This document shows positions 4,531-21,686 of a stretch of DNA of 32,000 nucleotides, in pieces; position 1 is the first letter of the stretch, and the number at the start of each line of letters is the position of its first letter. Both the position numbers and the translations under genes were made by a program. Source of the stretch: Pseudoalteromonas tetraodonis (GTDB taxonomy: Bacteria > Pseudomonadota > Gammaproteobacteria > Enterobacterales > Alteromonadaceae); assembly GCF_002310835.1 (NCBI RefSeq), contig NZ_CP011041.1, positions 1,440,001 through 1,472,000 on the forward strand, given 5' to 3'. The notes beneath the pieces are model-generated. The model did not search any database and was not told where the DNA came from. It saw nothing but the letters and a program-made list of their open reading frames with translations.

Positions 4531-5259
4531 ATGATTGATATTCATACGCATATTTTGCCGGGTATTGATGATGGCGCTAAAGATTTAACTGAATCTTTAG
4601 CGCTTTTAAAATTGGCTGAAAACGACGGCATTACTCATATGGTGGCAACGCCACATATACATATGGGTCGCTTTAACAATGCGACTGCTCAAATCAAAAA
4701 CGATTTAGAGAGTTTAAAGCTAGAGGCACATAAAGAGGGTATTAATGTTAAATTAGCGGCTGCTGCTGAGGTGCGTTTAGACGTAGAACTTATGGCAATG
4801 GTGATGGCTAATAAGCTGCCTTTTATTGGTAAAATAGCAGACAAAAATGTGTTGTTATTAGAGTTACCGCATTCACACATGCCACAAGGTTACGATAAGT
4901 TTATACAGTGGCTCGCTAAACAAAACACACGCGTTATTATTCCGCACCCTGAGCGTAATCGCGATATTCAGTCAAACCTTTATTATATTCAGCACTTAAA
5001 GCAGTTAGGCTGCGACTTTCAATTAACTGCATCGAGTATTGAAGGCGAGTGGGGCGAAAGCGCTCAAGCTATAGCGTTACAAATGCTAAAAGATGGTTTA
5101 GTGAACTATGTTGCCTCTGATGCCCATTCAGTAAAGCGCCGACCGCCTATTTTAAGCCAAGCTAAAAATACAGTAGCGCAGTTAATAGGTGAAGAGCAGG
5201 CAACAGCGCTTTTTGTAACTAACCCGCTGCAATTAACCGAGAGCTTATTTAATGACTAA
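4531..5259 (+). CDS. PHP-family protein-tyrosine phosphatase (CpsB/YwqE-like)
   Basis: MIDIHTHILPGIDDGA N-terminal metal motif, ATPHIH, HPERN, ASDAHS. 242 aa. Immediately follows the BY-kinase. Confidence 0.9.
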   Translation: MIDIHTHILPGIDDGAKDLTESLALLKLAENDGITHMVATPHIHMGRFNNATAQIKNDLESLKLEAHKEGINVKLAAAAEVRLDVELMAMVMANKLPFIGKIADKNVLLLELPHSHMPQGYDKFIQWLAKQNTRVIIPHPERNRDIQSNLYYIQHLKQLGCDFQLTASSIEGEWGESAQAIALQMLKDGLVNYVASDAHSVKRRPPILSQAKNTVAQLIGEEQATALFVTNPLQLTESLFND

Positions 5260-5965
5260 ATTAAACATGGTCAAGGTAGTGCCTGCTGTTATTTTAGCTC
5301 TAATAGTGCTTGTAATTGCATATAGCAGCATGCAAAGTATGCGCGCTAATGCATGGTACTTTCATGCACTTAATATTGTGCAAGAGTCGGATGGTGCTTT
5401 ATCTGGTTCATCGCTTCAAGCTGCAGAAAATGCGATTACGTTAGCTACGAATATGGATCCCGAGCATCCTCATTATTGGCATTTTTTAGCCCATATCAAA
5501 TTACTAAGCCTCAGTGGTATAGATAGCACATCAAGTGAGCAATCAGATAAAGTAAAGCAAACATATCAACAAGCTGAGCAGGCGTTATTAAAGTCAGTTG
5601 AGCTTAGACAAACTTGGGCACAAACTTGGATGAGCTTAGCGCAAGTTGTAAGTTATCAAGAGGGACCAACAGAGCGGGTATACAATTATATTCAGCAAGC
5701 CAAAAAAGTAGGCCCATATAAGTTAGATATTCATTTAGGCATTATTCAAATTGCGTTAATGCACTGGAGTGAACTACCACCTACCTACAAAGCCCTTTAT
5801 GTGAATGAGCTTAAATTAGCTTCTAAATATGGTTATAAATTTTATGATGTGTTTAGTATGGCTGAGCAAATGAATCGTTTGCCAATAGTGTGTTTATCGC
5901 TGCAATTTGGTTCTCATTATGAGGCTATCAGAGGCAGCTGGATGTTTAATAAATACTGTGGTTAA
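5252..5965 (+). CDS. Hypothetical membrane-anchored helical-repeat protein, last gene of the polysaccharide operon
   Basis: 237-aa ORF overlapping the phosphatase stop by 8 nt. One N-terminal TM (VVPAVILALIVLVIAY), the remainder looks helical/TPR-like. I recognise no motif. Confidence 0.55.
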   Translation: MTKLNMVKVVPAVILALIVLVIAYSSMQSMRANAWYFHALNIVQESDGALSGSSLQAAENAITLATNMDPEHPHYWHFLAHIKLLSLSGIDSTSSEQSDKVKQTYQQAEQALLKSVELRQTWAQTWMSLAQVVSYQEGPTERVYNYIQQAKKVGPYKLDIHLGIIQIALMHWSELPPTYKALYVNELKLASKYGYKFYDVFSMAEQMNRLPIVCLSLQFGSHYEAIRGSWMFNKYCG

Positions 5966-5975
5966 AACACGAGCC

Positions 5976-6014
5976 ACGAGCTTCGAGTAACGGGCCTTGA
6001 ACCTCGCAGCTCGT
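5976..6014 (+). terminator. GC-rich hairpin just after the polysaccharide operon (possible terminator)
   Basis: ACGAGCT-t-CGAG (5976-5987) pairs with CTCG-c-AGCTCGT (6003-6014), 15-nt loop. The T-run (CCTTTTTT, 6031-6038) is about 17 nt downstream, so this is not a canonical intrinsic terminator. Confidence 0.3.
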
Positions 6015-6020
6015 CTACTC

Positions 6021-6926
6021 TGAACTTTAACCTTTTTTGAACCACAGAGAGCACCGAGGCGCTTCGTGCTGCACAGAGAAAAAGCTTCAATTTTGGAAAT
6101 CTAATAACTAAGAACAGTTCTTTAATCTTTGTCTTTAATTACTTTCTCTGTGTTCTCCTATCCTCTGTGGTAAATAAATTTTTAAGAGCTTATTGTAATG
6201 CCCAGGTCCGGTTGTCCGATCCCCGCAACCAGTTAACTTTCTCCTAAAACCTTTATTTTTGAACCACAGAGAACACCGAGGCGCTTCGCGCTGCACTGAG
6301 AAAAAGCTTCAATTTTGGAAATCTAATAACTAACAACAGTTCTTTAATCTTTTTCTTTAATTACTTTCTCTGTGTTCTCCTATCCTCTGTGGTAAATAAA
6401 TTTTTAAGAGCTTATTGTAATGCCCAGGTTCGGTTGTCCGATCCCCGCAACCAGTTAACTATCTCCTAAAACCTTTATTTTTGAACCACAGAGAGCACCG
6501 AGGCGCTTCGCGCTGCACTGAGAAAAAGCTTCAATTTTGGAAATCGAATAACTAACAACAGTTCTTTAATCTTTGTCTTTAATCACTTTCTCTGTTTTCT
6601 CCTATCCTCTGTGGTAAATAAATTTTTAAGAGCTTATTGTAATGCCCAGGTCCGGTTGTCCGATCCCCGGAACCAGTTAACTTTCTCCTAAAACCTTTAT
6701 TTTTGAACCACAGAGAACACCGAGGCGCTTCGCGCTGCACAGAGAAAAAGCTTCAATTTTGGAAATCTAATAACTAACAACAGTTCTTTAATCTTTGTCT
6801 TTAATTACTTTCTCTGTGTGCTCCTATCCTCTGTGGTAAATAAATCACTAAGTTCTTATTGTAATAATAGGGCTGGGTGAGTGATTAAGCTCGTAACCCG
6901 ACTCCCGAGGCCCGTTAACTTTTGCC
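6021..6926. repeat. Tandem array of a 222-bp non-coding unit: 3 full copies, a 4th with a diverged tail, and a degenerate partial unit at the left edge
   Basis: Anchor GAACCACAGAGA at 6039, 6261, 6483 and 6705 (period exactly 222). Copies differ by only a few substitutions. Nested inverted repeats in each unit (copy 1: CCACAGAG 6042-6049 / CTCTGTGG 6163-6170; CACAGAGAAA 6072-6081 / TTTCTCTGTG 6143-6152). No ORF longer than about 12 codons on either strand. Confidence 0.95.
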
Positions 6927-6931
6927 TAGAC

Positions 6932-6965
6932 AAAAAAAGACCCAGAGCTAAAAGAACTCTGGGTT
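6932..6965 (-). terminator. Rho-independent terminator on the minus strand, downstream of rsmF
   Basis: Minus-strand reading AACCCAGAG-ttcttttag-CTCTGGGT followed by CTTTTTTTG. Stem 6940-6947 / 6957-6964. A second hairpin GGGCTC-gtattt-GAGCCC lies at 6972-6989. Confidence 0.7.
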
Positions 6966-7140
6966 ATAGAGGGGCTCGTATTTGAGCCCTGCGCTAACTA
7001 AAGACACTTTCAGATTCTTAGGGAGAAGAAGAAAGTTATTTAAGTATAGTCAAAAGTGCTAAAAATACACATTTTTGTTCGTTTTTTATACTACTGTAAT
7101 TACAGCAAGTTACATTTGTTATACACACCTTTATTAGAAT

Positions 7141-8592
7141 TTACGCCCAGTTTATTAACTGCGTATTTTGTACTAAATCTCGTGGTAAAGAGTTTTTAAC
7201 TTTATTTTTTTGCCATTTCCCTAAGCCAATAGGGCAACCACATAAAGTTAGGATTACCTCGCCGCTGGATTTGGTTACCTCTTCTAGGCGTATATCTTTA
7301 CCATTAAAGTAATCGTTAGCCTGTTCATTGGTTAATGCCAGTACATTACTTTTACACTGCTTACCAAATACGGTGGCAAATTCGTGCGTTAGGCGTACGC
7401 CATTTTTATGAATAACGCCTACTTGTATCCCTAATCGCGCATATTTAATTTTGTTTTGTATCGCTTCAAACTCATCAGGAAACAGCCAAAGCTCTTTGTC
7501 GCGTTGTTTTAACGTACCTGGCAGGCTTGTTAAACCAAATTGCTTTTTGAGAGAGCTCATAAACTCATCTTGCTGTTTACTGTCAAATTGGTTAAACGGG
7601 AACGCGCCTTTTTTAACTTTTAATGTTTGGTTTTCGCAGCTGCTGTGCTTTTTAAATTTGGCAATAAAAAAGCCTTCGCTGTCAAAGGTTTGCGGCCAAA
7701 CATGTAAGTAGCCCTCTGCGGTGGTGGCTTTATCAGCTCCAGGGAATAAATCGCTTAATGACTCAGGGCTTATATATTCGCCAAACTCATCTAATAATGC
7801 GCTGCATACTTGCTGGTTTTCGAGTGGGGTTAACGTACAGGTTGAATACACTAATGTGCCACCTGGTTTAAGTGCATAAAACGCACTTTTAATCAGATCT
7901 TTTTGTACTTGGGCAATGGTAATATTTGACTCGATTGACCAATTTTTTAGCGCGTCGCTATCTTTACGTACTGTGCCTTCGCCAGAGCAGGGCGCATCAA
8001 GTAAAATGCTGTCGAAGCACTCAAACATGTAGTTGCCAAATACCACACCATCAAAATGCGATAGCGCACAGTTACCTACACCCATACGCTTTAGCGTGGC
8101 ACTGAGTACTTTTAAACGTGATGACGAAAGCTCATTTGCAACTAGCACGCCTTGATTGTTCATTAGTGCAGCCAGTTGTGAGGTTTTAGAGCCCGGTGCC
8201 GAGGCCATATCGAGCACTGTGTTACTGGTTTTAAGGCTTTGCTTTAGTGCCATTGGCGGCAACATTGAGCTTGCCTCTTGAACGTAAATAGCCCCGCTTA
8301 AGTGTAAATCGGTATTGCCCAGCGCTAGGTTTTGCTCTTCATCGTTTGGGCGCTCTAACCAAAAACCTTCGTCGCACCAAGGAATAGCGGTAAGTTGCCA
8401 GTTTTTTTTAGCCGCTTGTTGCTTAAACTCTTCAACACTCATTTTTAATGTATTAACGCGAACAGATTTACGCAGTGGACGACGACATGCACTTAAAAAG
8501 TCATCTAAGTTTAGGTGCTCGGGTAAATAGGTTTTTACGTCGTTAATAAATGGCTCAGGGATGTAAGTGTTTGCGTCCACGTTTTGGCTCAT
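7141..8592 (-). CDS. rsmF: 16S rRNA m5C methyltransferase, RsmF (YebU)-like
   Basis: m5C RNA methyltransferase motifs DAPCSGEG and YSTCTL. No NusB-like N-domain, so not RsmB. Starting at ATG 8592 ([10 protein letters not shown]...) gives 483 aa, close to E. coli RsmF (about 480 aa). The upstream 50 codons of the 533-aa ORF look like promoter read-through. Confidence 0.85.
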
Positions 8593-8671
8593 ACAGTCAA
8601 AATAAAGCATGATAATAGCATTTTTAACGATTTTTTTCAGTGTTAAAAACGAAATAGTAACCCTTAAAAGG

Positions 8672-8828
8672 TGTCGACATCTTGTTGGGTAAAACAGCTT
8701 AAATACATTTTTTATTATACTTTCGGCTAATAATGTCGACAATATGGTGGTTTTTCACTCGATTTAAGTGGTTCTAGGGTTGACAGGTATAAATAATAAG
8801 CACATAGTTAGACCATAAATTGTCGACA
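8672..8828. promoter_or_regulatory. Divergent rsmF / prp-regulator control region with three TGTCGACA palindromes (candidate GntR-family operators)
   Basis: TGTCGACA at 8672-8679, 8734-8741 (within AATGTCGACAATAT) and 8821-8828 (within AATTGTCGACAATAT). The GT-n-AC core palindrome is the general form of FadR-subfamily GntR operators. The last site lies 16 nt upstream of the regulator ATG. Confidence 0.55.
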
Positions 8829-21114: not shown

Positions 21115-21126
21115 TTCTTTTTTTAT

Positions 21127-21302
21127 TGGTACGACTGAGTGGATTTGGAGCATTGACCCTTGGAGCGGGTGATTAAGAGTAGGTAGTGCTTTTTCTTGGG
21201 GTGTTTTTTTGAATTGGTACGACTGAGTGGATTTGGAGCATTGACCCTTGGAGCGGGTGATTAAGAGTAGGTAGTGCTTTTTCTTGGGGTGTTTTTTTGA
21301 AT
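21127..21302 (-). pseudogene. Two tandem 88-bp tRNA-Val-derived units (type A), not functional tRNAs
   Basis: Units 21127-21214 and 21215-21302. Each begins (+ strand) with TGGTACGACTGAGTGGATT, which is the CCA end, discriminator, 3' acceptor and part of the T arm of the adjacent tRNA-Val. The T stem is degenerate and the D arm and 5' acceptor are absent. Confidence 0.8.
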
Positions 21303-21379
21303 TGGTACGACTGAGTGGATTCGAACCACCGACCCCTACCATGTCAAGGTAGTGCTCTAACCAACTGAGCTACAGTCGT
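21303..21379 (-). tRNA. tRNA-Val (anticodon GAC), CCA encoded
   Basis: Minus strand: ACGACTG-TA-GCTC-AGTTGGTTA-GAGC-A-CTACC-TTGACAT-GGTAG-GGGTC-GGTGG-TTCGAAT-CCACT-CAGTCGT-A-CCA. 77 nt, full cloverleaf. Very similar to E. coli tRNA-Val(GAC). Confidence 0.95.
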
Positions 21380-21405
21380 ACAATATGAAATTCTTAAACT
21401 TTGTT

Positions 21406-21609
21406 TGGTACGACTGAGTGGATTCGAACCACCGACTTCTGGACCGGGTGATCAAGAGTAGGTAGTGCTTTTTCCTTCAACGTACTTTAATTAAATCTTT
21501 AAAAATTTGGTACGACTGAGTGGATTCGAACCACCGACTTCTGGACCGGGTGATCAAGAGTAGGTAGTGCTTTTTCTTTCAACGTACTTTAATTAAATCT
21601 TTAAAAATT
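21406..21609 (-). pseudogene. Two tandem 102-bp tRNA-Val-derived units (type B), not functional tRNAs
   Basis: Units 21406-21507 and 21508-21609. They retain 31 nt of the tRNA 3' end (TGGTACGACTGAGTGGATTCGAACCACCGAC on +, an intact T arm) and GGTAGTGCT. The anticodon/variable region is replaced and the D arm and 5' acceptor are lost. Confidence 0.8.
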
Positions 21610-21686
21610 TGGTACGACTGAGTGGATTCGAACCACCGACCCCTACCATGTCAAGGTAGTGCTCTAACCAACTGAGCTACAGTCGT
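21610..21686 (-). tRNA. tRNA-Val (anticodon GAC), CCA encoded
   Basis: Identical 77-nt sequence to 21303-21379. Confidence 0.95.

Follow-up and report, generated by a model that had tools for sequence, protein, structure and literature searches.

A 222-bp hairpin array in Pseudoalteromonas tetraodonis is probably the amplified gene-less counterpart of a GxxExxY nuclease cassette

Nuclease-linked palindromic repeats are a known general kind of bacterial intergenic sequence. Here we describe one such object in a 32-kb stretch of Pseudoalteromonas tetraodonis NZ_CP011041.1 (the window; coordinates are window positions): an array of four hairpins with a 222-bp period, lying between a vps-like polysaccharide operon on the plus strand and an SdsR-like small RNA (sRNA) gene and rsmF on the minus strand. 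By itself the array is ordinary, an amplified intergenic palindromic repeat. We consider it likely that it arose as a local amplification, like a variable-number tandem repeat, of a non-autonomous palindrome that is the gene-less counterpart, in the manner of a miniature inverted-repeat transposable element (MITE), of a GxxExxY cassette. Such a cassette is a ~123-aa GxxExxY/PDDEXK_3 open reading frame (ORF) bracketed by three-heptamer inverted repeats (CAC[N]GAG here, CACGAAG in most other lineages). We did not find this partner gene and architecture described, and a search of a literature collection returned nothing on the repeat or on its link to the GxxExxY gene.

Comparison with described repeat systems

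In pairs of MITEs and insertion sequences (ISs), gene-less copies are short, intergenic, dispersed and hairpin-forming, and share terminal inverted repeats with a gene-bearing element. The same is true here, with gene-less copies of ~80-170 nt. The window's hairpin is a 129-nt non-coding element bounded by terminal inverted repeats and lacking a credible ORF, and its candidate autonomous partner is a GxxExxY ORF with the same triple-heptamer arms. Unlike in MITE/IS pairs, however, the gene encodes a 123-aa PD-(D/E)XK protein and not a DDE, HUH (histidine-hydrophobic-histidine) or serine/tyrosine transposase; the whole unit is ~435 bp, with no target-site duplication found; and the elements are strongly polar relative to host transcription and prone to form tandem arrays. 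The ends of IS21, Tn7 and Mu hold several iterated sub-sites, as do the hairpin arms here.

Repetitive extragenic palindromes (REPs), their paired form (REPINs) and the REP-associated tyrosine transposases (RAYTs) offer a second parallel, in that abundant intergenic palindromes are tied to one small nuclease-type gene flanked by repeats, while most repeat copies lie far from any gene copy. REPs measure 20-40 nt with a conserved GTAG head, whereas the present elements are heptamer triplets of ~80-170 nt without GTAG. RAYTs are Y1 HUH enzymes related to IS200/IS605, whereas the flanked gene here matches only PF13366/TIGR04256, of the PD-(D/E)XK type.

Mosaic repeats, including the bacterial interspersed mosaic elements (BIMEs) of E. 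coli, pneumococcal BOX (boxA-(boxB)n-boxC), enterobacterial repetitive intergenic consensus sequences/intergenic repeat units (ERIC/IRU) and the Correia elements of Neisseria, share a modular build with variable numbers of tandem modules. Here, too, distinct modules occur in variable order and number in intergenic clusters, a likeness of organization only. Further similarities are long imperfect palindromes of ~100-150 nt and an expected co-transcription with neighbours. We detected no sequence relationship and no Rfam match, however, and BIME, BOX, ERIC and Correia elements carry no cognate gene between their arms. A gene polarity such as the 19 of 19 reported below is, to our knowledge, not a described feature of these families.

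Invertible segments of the fim and hin/gin kind resemble the cassette as inverted-repeat-bounded segments found in both orientations at an orthologous site. They differ from it in that the cassette lacks a dedicated serine/tyrosine invertase and the two orientations come from different lineages; ordinary homologous recombination across the 27-30-bp arms could account for its inversion. ORF-bearing intervening sequences of 23S rRNA likewise place a small ORF in the loop of a long inverted-repeat stem. These ORFs are transcribed within the host transcript, and those known belong to another family, a four-helix bundle. The hosts here are the 3′ regions of protein genes, not rRNA, and processing of the cassette stems by RNase III is a conjecture.

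Four hairpins repeat in tandem downstream of vpsP

Tandem Repeats Finder reported a single array at 6034-6865 (period 222, 3.7 copies, 95% matches, zero indels), and a second repeat search returned four copies with start spacings of 222/222/222; GAACCACAGAG begins at 6039, 6261, 6483 and 6705. This agrees with the initial annotation, made from the letters alone, which had described about four near-identical tandem copies of a 222-bp unit. A four-unit alignment bore out its further description of three full copies, a fourth with a longer, diverged tail and a tail-like sequence before the first: units 1-3 are complete, unit 4 is a hairpin followed by a related but diverged tail that is 16 nt longer than the others and ends near 6926, and the ~20 nt 5′ of copy 1 are similar to a unit tail. 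Each unit consists of a 129-nt imperfect palindrome and a locus-specific spacer, and no extra hairpin copy was found elsewhere in the window. The array and its parts are as follows.

6034-6926, no strand: whole tandem array, with three full 222-bp units, a fourth hairpin and the original right flank (Tandem Repeats Finder, alignment)
6042-6170, minus strand: hairpin (A-type palindromic element) of unit 1, the strand being the presumed 'gene-sense' strand from the orientation rule and cassette polarity
6264-6392, minus strand: hairpin of unit 2
6486-6614, minus strand: hairpin of unit 3
6708-6836, minus strand: hairpin of unit 4, the last copy
6058-6070, minus strand, and again at 6280-6292, 6502-6514 and 6724-6736: GC mini-hairpin (from its sequence and family loop statistics)
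6171-6263, 6393-6485 and 6615-6707, no strand: inter-hairpin spacers, locus-specific
6837-6927, no strand: tail of unit 4 (the 'diverged tail'), which is the right flank that bordered the single ancestral element and is kept in relatives with 0, 1 or 5 units
5966-6041, no strand: left flank, a GC-rich CGAG/CTTCGAG low-complexity stretch and an AT-rich leader

On the plus strand the unit 1 hairpin reads CCACAGAG-AG-CACCGAGG-(mini-hairpin)-CTG-CACAGAGAAA ... TTTCTCTGTG-TTCTCCTATC-CTCTGTGG. Both arms bear CAC[N]GAG heptamers ~9 nt apart, and one arm alone contains the GC mini-hairpin, which is GGCGC-TTC-G(T/C)GCT on the plus strand and of the GCGAAGC type (a GNA triloop) on the minus strand. All 13 occurrences of CACAGAG over both strands of the window lie in the array, against 1.75 expected in the window by chance. 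The nested stems proposed at the outset fold better than shuffled sequence on both strands (unit 2 hairpin: -31.2 kcal/mol, z -2.9 on plus; -39.3 kcal/mol, z -3.8 on minus). The second GC hairpin proposed for the spacer does not stand as a robust structure: its folding is weak (z -1.2 on plus, -2.4 on minus), and it is locus-specific and hypervariable among the units of one relative.

In each array unit a hairpin is accompanied by the right and left flanks, now fused, that once bordered a lone ancestral copy; the spacers show homology to the original right flank run together with its left counterpart, and the final ~20 nt of the left flank belong to the duplicated unit. The window units are 96-98% identical, with substitutions at scattered positions. 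Among these changes, the A>T in CACTGAG that had been read as uncompensated is real, but it sits at the heptamer's central position, which is variable and often mismatched family-wide.

The absence of any ORF above ~12 codons held for ATG starts, with which the array has no ORF, and failed for GTG/TTG starts, with which ORFs of 24-53 codons appear. Two 53-codon GTG-start ORFs on the minus strand (6135-6296 and 6579-6740) run over junctions 1/2 and 3/4, the equivalent frame is interrupted at junction 2/3, and a 24-codon TTG ORF is present in each unit. None of these 53- and 24-codon ORFs showed homology to GxxExxY, and they are probably not coding.

Tandem arrays of sRNA genes occur in other bacteria, and here the units are structured, nearly identical and next to an SdsR/RyeA-like locus, all of which would suit the early suggestion of tandem structured RNA genes; a promoter and a terminator would then be expected in every unit. 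A consensus scan, however, found 0 sigma-70-like promoters in the array against 2.7 expected, and the array contains no terminator-like site; the sole one, at 6964-6940, belongs to the neighbouring SdsR-like gene. The check for a known RNA family with Rfam 15 gave no match over the array at gathering thresholds or at E<=10 and none on the repeat at locus L029 and five related loci (L005, L011, L021, L024 and L035). In addition, conservation elsewhere is limited to the arms and extends to neither loop nor spacer, and related copies are spread over intergenic regions of all kinds and also make up huge arrays. The sRNA-gene explanation is thus largely refuted and scarcely tenable.

Four other candidates were considered and rejected: type I toxin-antitoxin repeats of the Ldr/Ibs kind, raised by the tandem layout (no conserved small hydrophobic ORF); a CsrB/RsmZ-like sponge, raised by GGA motifs on the minus strand (motifs few, family dispersed); integron attC sites or Vibrio cholerae repeats, raised by GTTAAC (no attC architecture, no cassettes); and a CRISPR array (the whole 222-bp unit repeats, spacers included).

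The hairpin belongs to a dispersed intergenic family

The element is not confined to this strain, as had been considered at first: family matches occur in several genera, and units stand at the same locus in two relatives, L038 and L040. A search for dispersed copies and a comparison of relatives, both advised in the initial annotation, revealed other loci and copy-number variation. In plasmid and chromid records, BLAST placed the 5′ arm in Pseudoalteromonas second chromosomes at 2-7 places per record, and the unit's first 50 nt matched the second chromosomes of P. shioyasakiensis and another strain, which carry arrays with periods of 145, 212 and 239 bp. An exact scan of 185,579 species genomes (one per species) for the 22-mer CGCTTCGYGCTNCACWGAGAAA found 30 loci, in many Pseudoalteromonas species, Colwellia, Psychromonas and one Bacillota metagenome-assembled genome (MAG), where we estimate ~1 chance match from the pattern and collection size. 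Within these 30 loci an nhmmer profile of the arm counted 147 copies, with up to 39 per 8 kb. The exact pattern occurred at 6 loci in P. apostichopi, where 48 kb contained 21 arm copies, and on 3 contigs in P. atlantica. In Pseudoalteromonas, Colwellia and Psychromonas the family is intergenic and often forms arrays. A blastn search of a phage collection and a pattern scan of IMG/VR gave no match, and hence no sign of phage origin.

Arms are kept between loci while loops differ completely, and the window unit's 60-nt loop and its spacer were absent from the other family loci examined. Given on the plus strand of the window, the family design runs CCAC[N]GAG, 2 nt, CAC[N]GAGG, the mini-hairpin (GGCGC-TTC-GCGCT), 3 nt and CACAGAGAA, then a loop that varies freely in sequence and length, followed by TTCTCTGTG, in many cases by a third CTCTCTGTG, and finally by CTC[N]GTGG, with heptamers ~9-10 nt apart. 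The outer arms CCACAGAG/CTCTGTGG can be extended in relatives to TTGAACCACAGAG/CTCTGTGGTTCAA. Many arrays intersperse the A-type with a paralogue, the B-type module, which reads CACAAAGAG ... GACGCT[T/G]CGCTTTAGAG. Family loci bring together modules of both types, half-elements and linker motifs, and their periods of 145, 212, 222 and 239 bp belong to different loci. Mini-hairpin loops across the family are TTC (69), TGC (17) and TAC (2), which become GAA, GCA or GTA on the gene-co-oriented strand; the GNA triloop type is unusually stable in DNA.

The regular spacing of the heptamers, about one helical turn apart on both arms, with 13 CACAGAG in ~800 bp, would also suit a platform for a host DNA-binding protein, such as a polysaccharide regulator or nucleoid protein, with no mobile element involved. 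Against this explanation, the same arms recur at many unrelated loci and in several genera beside unrelated genes, they bracket a nuclease ORF in distant bacteria, and relatives that share the vps operon contain no unit or a single one. We judge a host-protein platform very unlikely. A protein-binding array, also suggested at the outset, may still apply: the heptamers look like iterated binding sites, and their most plausible binder is the GxxExxY nuclease.

Several individual loci illustrate the range of the family. Very large arrays occur in a Psychromonas MAG at L019 (700-3200) and L022 (1600-7200), with 22 and 39 arm matches in 8 kb, respectively. Their elements have a mini-hairpin on each arm (GTAC-TGC-GTAC and GCGC-GAA-GCGC) and loops of microsatellite-like GTTTTAATG/GTTTTAGTG runs of variable length. 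We had considered 'GGTAC-TGC-GTACT' as a compensatory double change and rejected this, as it is the second mini-hairpin on the other arm in Psychromonas. The Bacillota MAG (L029, 1090-1300) has a GC-rich version of the hairpin between fabG and fabF, the expected place of acpP, with CACAGAG arms, an identical GGCGCTTCGCGCT mini-hairpin and a second mini-hairpin, GGCC-TAAA-GGCC; its 7.9-kb contig has no GxxExxY gene. Separate from all these, a classical REP-like family of short GC palindromes ending in CCTAC/GTAGG, for example CGCGAAATAAATTTCGCGCCTAC and GTAGGCGGGAGTTTACCTCGCG, shares the same Pseudoalteromonas intergenic regions (L016 7650-7900, L024 ~1800, L028 ~7640, L032 ~3960).

GxxExxY genes lie within these arrays or directly between such arms

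GxxExxY genes sit inside arrays of the family or directly between arms of its kind. In Alteromonadales, A- or B-type arrays flank GxxExxY in 5 of 5 independent contexts (13 loci in total). At nine Pseudoalteromonas loci, in the gap between Wzy_C and PhoD/TatD, B-type units lie on both sides of the gene; in Colwellia piezophila A-type units do so, and in Paraglaciecola psychrophila A-type units follow it. Two small genes in the array of locus L036 match only PF13366 (PDDEXK_3) and TIGR04256 (GxxExxY), and a 66%-identical homologue lies in the L019 array of Psychromonas, its start 24 nt past the end of one hairpin and the next hairpin 16 nt after the gene. Many homologues in public assemblies stand alone on contigs of 0.5-1.5 kb, as expected of genes boxed in by repeats. 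Every Alteromonadales GxxExxY context seen (L041-L051 and L036) is a polysaccharide locus, with a Wzy_C ligase, NDP-sugar enzymes, glycosyltransferases or vps-like export; the window array also adjoins one.

A protein-guided scan of metagenome contigs yielded 80 loci at 51-94% identity to the query. Marine loci fetched by the protein alone again bear A- or B-type elements. With 120 nt taken on each side, a significant inverted repeat (z>4 against shuffles) surrounds the ORF in 55 of the 71 loci with enough flank. The upstream arm mostly ends 0-16 nt before the start codon and the downstream arm mostly begins within ~5 nt of the stop, with a minority up to several tens of nt off. These arms are made of three 9-nt repeats, NNCAC[G/A][A/G]AG, in which CACGAAG is the most frequent heptamer, followed by CACAGAG, CACGGAG, CACAGAT and CATGAAG. 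Under a strict triple-heptamer definition, a forward arm, the ORF and a reverse arm succeed one another in 31 of 80 loci and 15 more have one arm (background, 0.157 arms/kb), while strict clusters of CAC[N]GAG were counted in 26 of 160 flank windows and in 20 of 1368 background windows. The gene-bearing unit is only ~435 bp, with an ORF of ~123 aa and terminal inverted repeats of ~27-30 nt.

Locus L102 shows the layout: CAC-CACAGAG-GA-CACGGAG-AG-CACAGAG-ATTTTAA-ATG ... TAA-T-CTCCGTG-CT-CTCTGTG-TC-CTCTGTG-GTG. The minus-strand arm of the window, ACCACAGAGGATAGGAGAACACAGAGA, is nearly equal to the L102 arm, ACCACAGAGGACACGGAGAGCACAGAGA. Heptamer type also tracks protein similarity, the nearest neighbour being of the same type in 41 of 49 cases where ~25 are expected. 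These shared arms, the dispersal over loci and genera and the copy numbers of 0, 1, 4 and 5 at the vpsP locus uphold the original proposal of a locally amplified MITE/REP-like element.

The cassette occurs inverted between lineages, with break points at the arms. Loci L075/L080/L104 and L086/L122/L112 have the same two convergent host genes (flanks 77-88% identical, ORF ~87-89% identical) with the cassette in opposite orientations. Flank homology ends a few bases outside the arms, the cassette fills the whole gap between the host stop codons, a few nt separate each of these codons from an arm, and in both orientations a host stop codon precedes the ORF by no more than a few bases. L101 and L120 form a second orthologous pair with opposite cassette orientations. 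Other cassette pairs, at 87-90% nucleotide identity, lie in unrelated flanks, which fits movement or transfer, short of proof of transposition.

The GxxExxY protein has a PD-(D/E)XK fold with D...ExK residues. D67 and E77-x-K79 are invariant in a nine-sequence alignment, and an AlphaFold model had a mean predicted local distance difference test (pLDDT) score of 86.7. A structure search with this protein gave weak matches only, led by Cas4 SSO0001 (probability 0.97, E 0.011) and followed by lambda-exonuclease-like enzymes, and a sequence search of the Protein Data Bank found no GxxExxY relative. The GxxExxY/PDDEXK_3 family is large, one search having matched >7,800 cluster representatives at E<=1e-20. 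The function of PDDEXK_3 is given as 'unknown', with multiple transfers between divisions, in a survey of the PD-(D/E)XK superfamily (PMC3424549).

Elements and cassettes are strongly polar relative to neighbouring genes

Both the gene-less hairpins and the cassettes are strongly oriented with respect to host genes. Counting each intergenic region once, with ORFs of >=130 aa as neighbours, we found that wherever a region was flanked by co-directional genes (19 of 19) the arm bearing GGCGCTTCGCGCT was antisense to them; the first tally also held 7 convergent regions (the window included) and 5 divergent ones. For the window's elements, 'gene-sense' corresponds to the minus strand, on which rsmF and the SdsR-like gene also lie. 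For cassettes, the ORF upstream is co-oriented in 42 of 48 cases at a median gap of 51 nt. This gap leaves no room for a promoter of the cassette's own and so points to expression by read-through; with no promoter room, orientation decides which of two convergent host genes reads into the cassette. The polarity, together with placement directly after stop codons, provides a handle on how the elements are expressed and tolerated.

Such strictness raises the alternative that the hairpins are host-selected cis-acting RNA elements (3′-end stabilizers, RNase III/E sites or insulators), with the GxxExxY link secondary. The four stems would then stop or process read-through between the vps operon and sdsR/rsmF, and the GxxExxY gene would merely use or target the hairpins. 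In support, besides the 19 of 19, the gene-co-oriented strand gives the better RNA fold in 49 of 52 distinct hairpins (G-U pairs 318 versus 130; in the window, -39.3 versus -31.2 kcal/mol) and has the GNA triloops. A scan found no intrinsic terminator downstream of vpsP, and the elements usually lie closer to the upstream stop codon than to the next start codon.

Closer accounting weakens part of this support. The G-U excess comes mostly from variable G/T-rich loops and follows base composition, wobble-type mismatches in the stems favour the gene-co-oriented strand only 14 to 8, and disallowing G-U pairing cuts the energy difference between strands from 6.8 to 1.2 kcal/mol. We therefore downgraded strand-asymmetric folding as proof of RNA function, the effect arising mostly from G/T-rich loops. 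Read in either orientation, the elements lack a terminal U-tract; they are also present in divergent promoter regions (5 of 32 regions), and one locus has 0 to 5 copies among close relatives while its flanking genes are unchanged. On balance a host-selected RNA function seems unlikely to us, although not negligibly so.

Copy number at the vpsP-rsmF gap differs between relatives

Using VpsP homologues, we obtained four loci syntenic with the window and compared them with the source strain.

Window, source strain: four hairpins (3.7 units) in the vpsP-rsmF gap
L038, strain DL-6, complete genome: VpsP identity 87%; 5 units at spacings of 190-237 bp
L040, P. tetraodonis: VpsP identity 90%; 1 unit, its left arm decayed
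L039, Logan assembly ERR14335724: VpsP identity 82%; no unit
L036, MAG (ERZ21849169): VpsP identity 91%; no A-type unit, 10 B-type units and 2 tandem PDDEXK_3 genes

Copy number at this locus thus differs between relatives. The sequence of the unit 4 tail is found in L036, L038 and L040 immediately before the SdsR-like gene, and the 'diverged tail' is the ancestral right flank. In one L038 spacer the right flank visibly runs into the left flank, which marks the tandem duplication of a segment with one element in it. Unit identity is 83-94% within L038 and 85-96% between the window and L038. Set beside the 96-98% within the window, these values indicate that the array predates the split and was partly homogenized. 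The copies had been taken for recent duplicates, which suits the identity within the window but not the age of the array.

Repeats of this kind invite the suspicion that the array was produced by the assembly, through collapse or expansion of a repeat. VpsP is unchanged in two Pseudoalteromonas draft genomes and one read-set assembly, and all three of these short-read contigs break inside unit 1 or, in one case, run into an IS3-family insertion. However, the units differ at scattered positions, an independent complete genome (L038) has 5 diverged units at the same place, and the flanks join conserved sequence cleanly on both sides. An artefact, a possibility raised at the start, is therefore almost certainly not the explanation. 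In the contig with the insertion (L001, GCA_000497975.1, 6920-8555), the IS3-family element (HTH_Tnp_1 + rve, 515 aa) starts a few bases past the CTCTGTGG of the first hairpin and takes the place of the remaining array. We rejected it as the hairpin's parent, as its inverted repeats are unrelated to the hairpin arms.

The gap is best read as a hot spot for such elements in the genus. In L036 (4860-7560) it contains ~10 B-type units, and a tandem duplication of ~1036 bp there carries two GxxExxY genes that are 98% identical; the upstream B element seems to be truncated in its right arm at the start of the gene segment.

A possible route from cassette to array

Taken together, the shared arms, the dispersal, the variable copy number and the inverted cassettes suggest a scheme in which the mobility of the cassette and the specificity of the nuclease are inferred. 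A single element would have lodged between the convergent vps operon and sdsR/rsmF and then been duplicated, with later expansion and contraction by unequal recombination or slippage between units and partial homogenization. The arms would serve as recognition sites of the GxxExxY nuclease, which would act in trans on gene-less copies. The cassette would have no promoter of its own and would depend on read-through from the upstream gene. Given such dependence, the elements would be transcribed together with their neighbours and form long stems in the RNA, and this would account for the polarity.

A bolder and more doubtful proposal is that GxxExxY cassettes are unrecognized, very small (~435 bp) selfish elements, in which a lone PD-(D/E)XK nuclease recognizes its own arms, moves or inverts itself, parks a few bases from host stop codons to gain expression by read-through, and mobilizes or amplifies ORF-less hairpins in trans; this would be a partnership like that of RAYTs and REPINs with another enzyme fold. 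The array in the window could, just as tentatively, be one footprint of such an element.

Several observations weigh against linking the array to the cassette in this way. We found no target-site duplication or empty site, and the vpsP-rsmF gap is too different among relatives to provide a clean filled/empty pair; transposition is therefore not demonstrated. A tblastn search with 85 GxxExxY proteins gave zero significant matches in the window, and the hairpin's 60-nt loop holds no recognizable ORF remnant. The gene of Psychromonas, Colwellia and Paraglaciecola is placed between complete hairpins, not within a single one. The Pseudoalteromonas gene has a ~170-nt leader and flanking arms of the B-type rather than the A-type, and its orientation relative to the B elements is opposite to the one these usually take towards host genes. 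The Bacillota element at L029 is oriented opposite to the Alteromonadales polarity, and the 80 metagenomic loci, being the nearest relatives of a single query, do not sample PF13366 as a whole. Finally, the polarity and the better minus-strand folding are equally compatible with a host-selected RNA function.

The GxxExxY gene proves to be carried as cargo by an inverted-repeat cassette with tight boundaries, of which gene-less derivatives exist. Should the nuclease act on its own arms, the GxxExxY family would gain a testable function, and the heptamer repeats would explain the repeat-rich gaps at which draft assemblies of Pseudoalteromonas, Colwellia and Psychromonas break. If true, the scheme would add a second, mechanistically different partnership of nuclease and palindromic repeat beside that of RAYT and REP.

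Neighbouring features of the window

Upstream of the array, a plus-strand export operon encodes a Wza-like protein, a Wzc-like tyrosine kinase, a Cps4B-like phosphatase and a VpsP-family protein ending at 5965. On the other side the minus strand carries the SdsR-like gene and rsmF and, beyond rsmF, prpB, prpC and acnD.

5252-5965, plus strand: VpsP-family gene, last of the polysaccharide export operon (NCBIfam NF038257, 257 bits)
6932-7028, minus strand: SdsR/RyeB-like sRNA, outside the array (Rfam RF00111, 30.8 bits, gathering score 38, E 0.0029)
6928-7074, plus strand: SraC/RyeA-like antisense partner of the SdsR-like gene (Rfam RF00101, 32.9 bits, gathering score 37, E 0.00027)
7141-8742, minus strand: rsmF, 16S rRNA m5C1407 methyltransferase (NCBIfam NF008898, 694 bits)

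The RF00111 and RF00101 matches are full length, though under their gathering scores. The SdsR-like gene has a clean intrinsic terminator at 6964-6940 and, on the minus strand at 7049-7040, the -10-like box CTATACTTAA, which we take to resemble a sigma-S -10 element; this stretch is 88-92% conserved in L036, L038 and L040. The true start of rsmF is probably downstream of the TTG at 8742, as RsmF proteins of relatives have 479-493 aa.

After the vpsP stop codon, the GC-rich stretch at 5966-6020 is built of short CGAGC/CTTCGAG/CGGG motifs and is ~40 nt longer in P. tetraodonis L040 (4715-4810). This low-complexity stretch is a second, unrelated variable element at the junction. Elsewhere in the window, two intact minus-strand tRNA-Val(GAC) genes (21303-21379 and 21610-21686) lie within tandem repeats at 21118-21686 with periods of 88 and 102 bp. 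In the remaining copies, uncalled by ARAGORN, a different 5′ part precedes the 3′ half of the tRNA (T-arm and acceptor); they look like tRNA-like remnants or variant copies.

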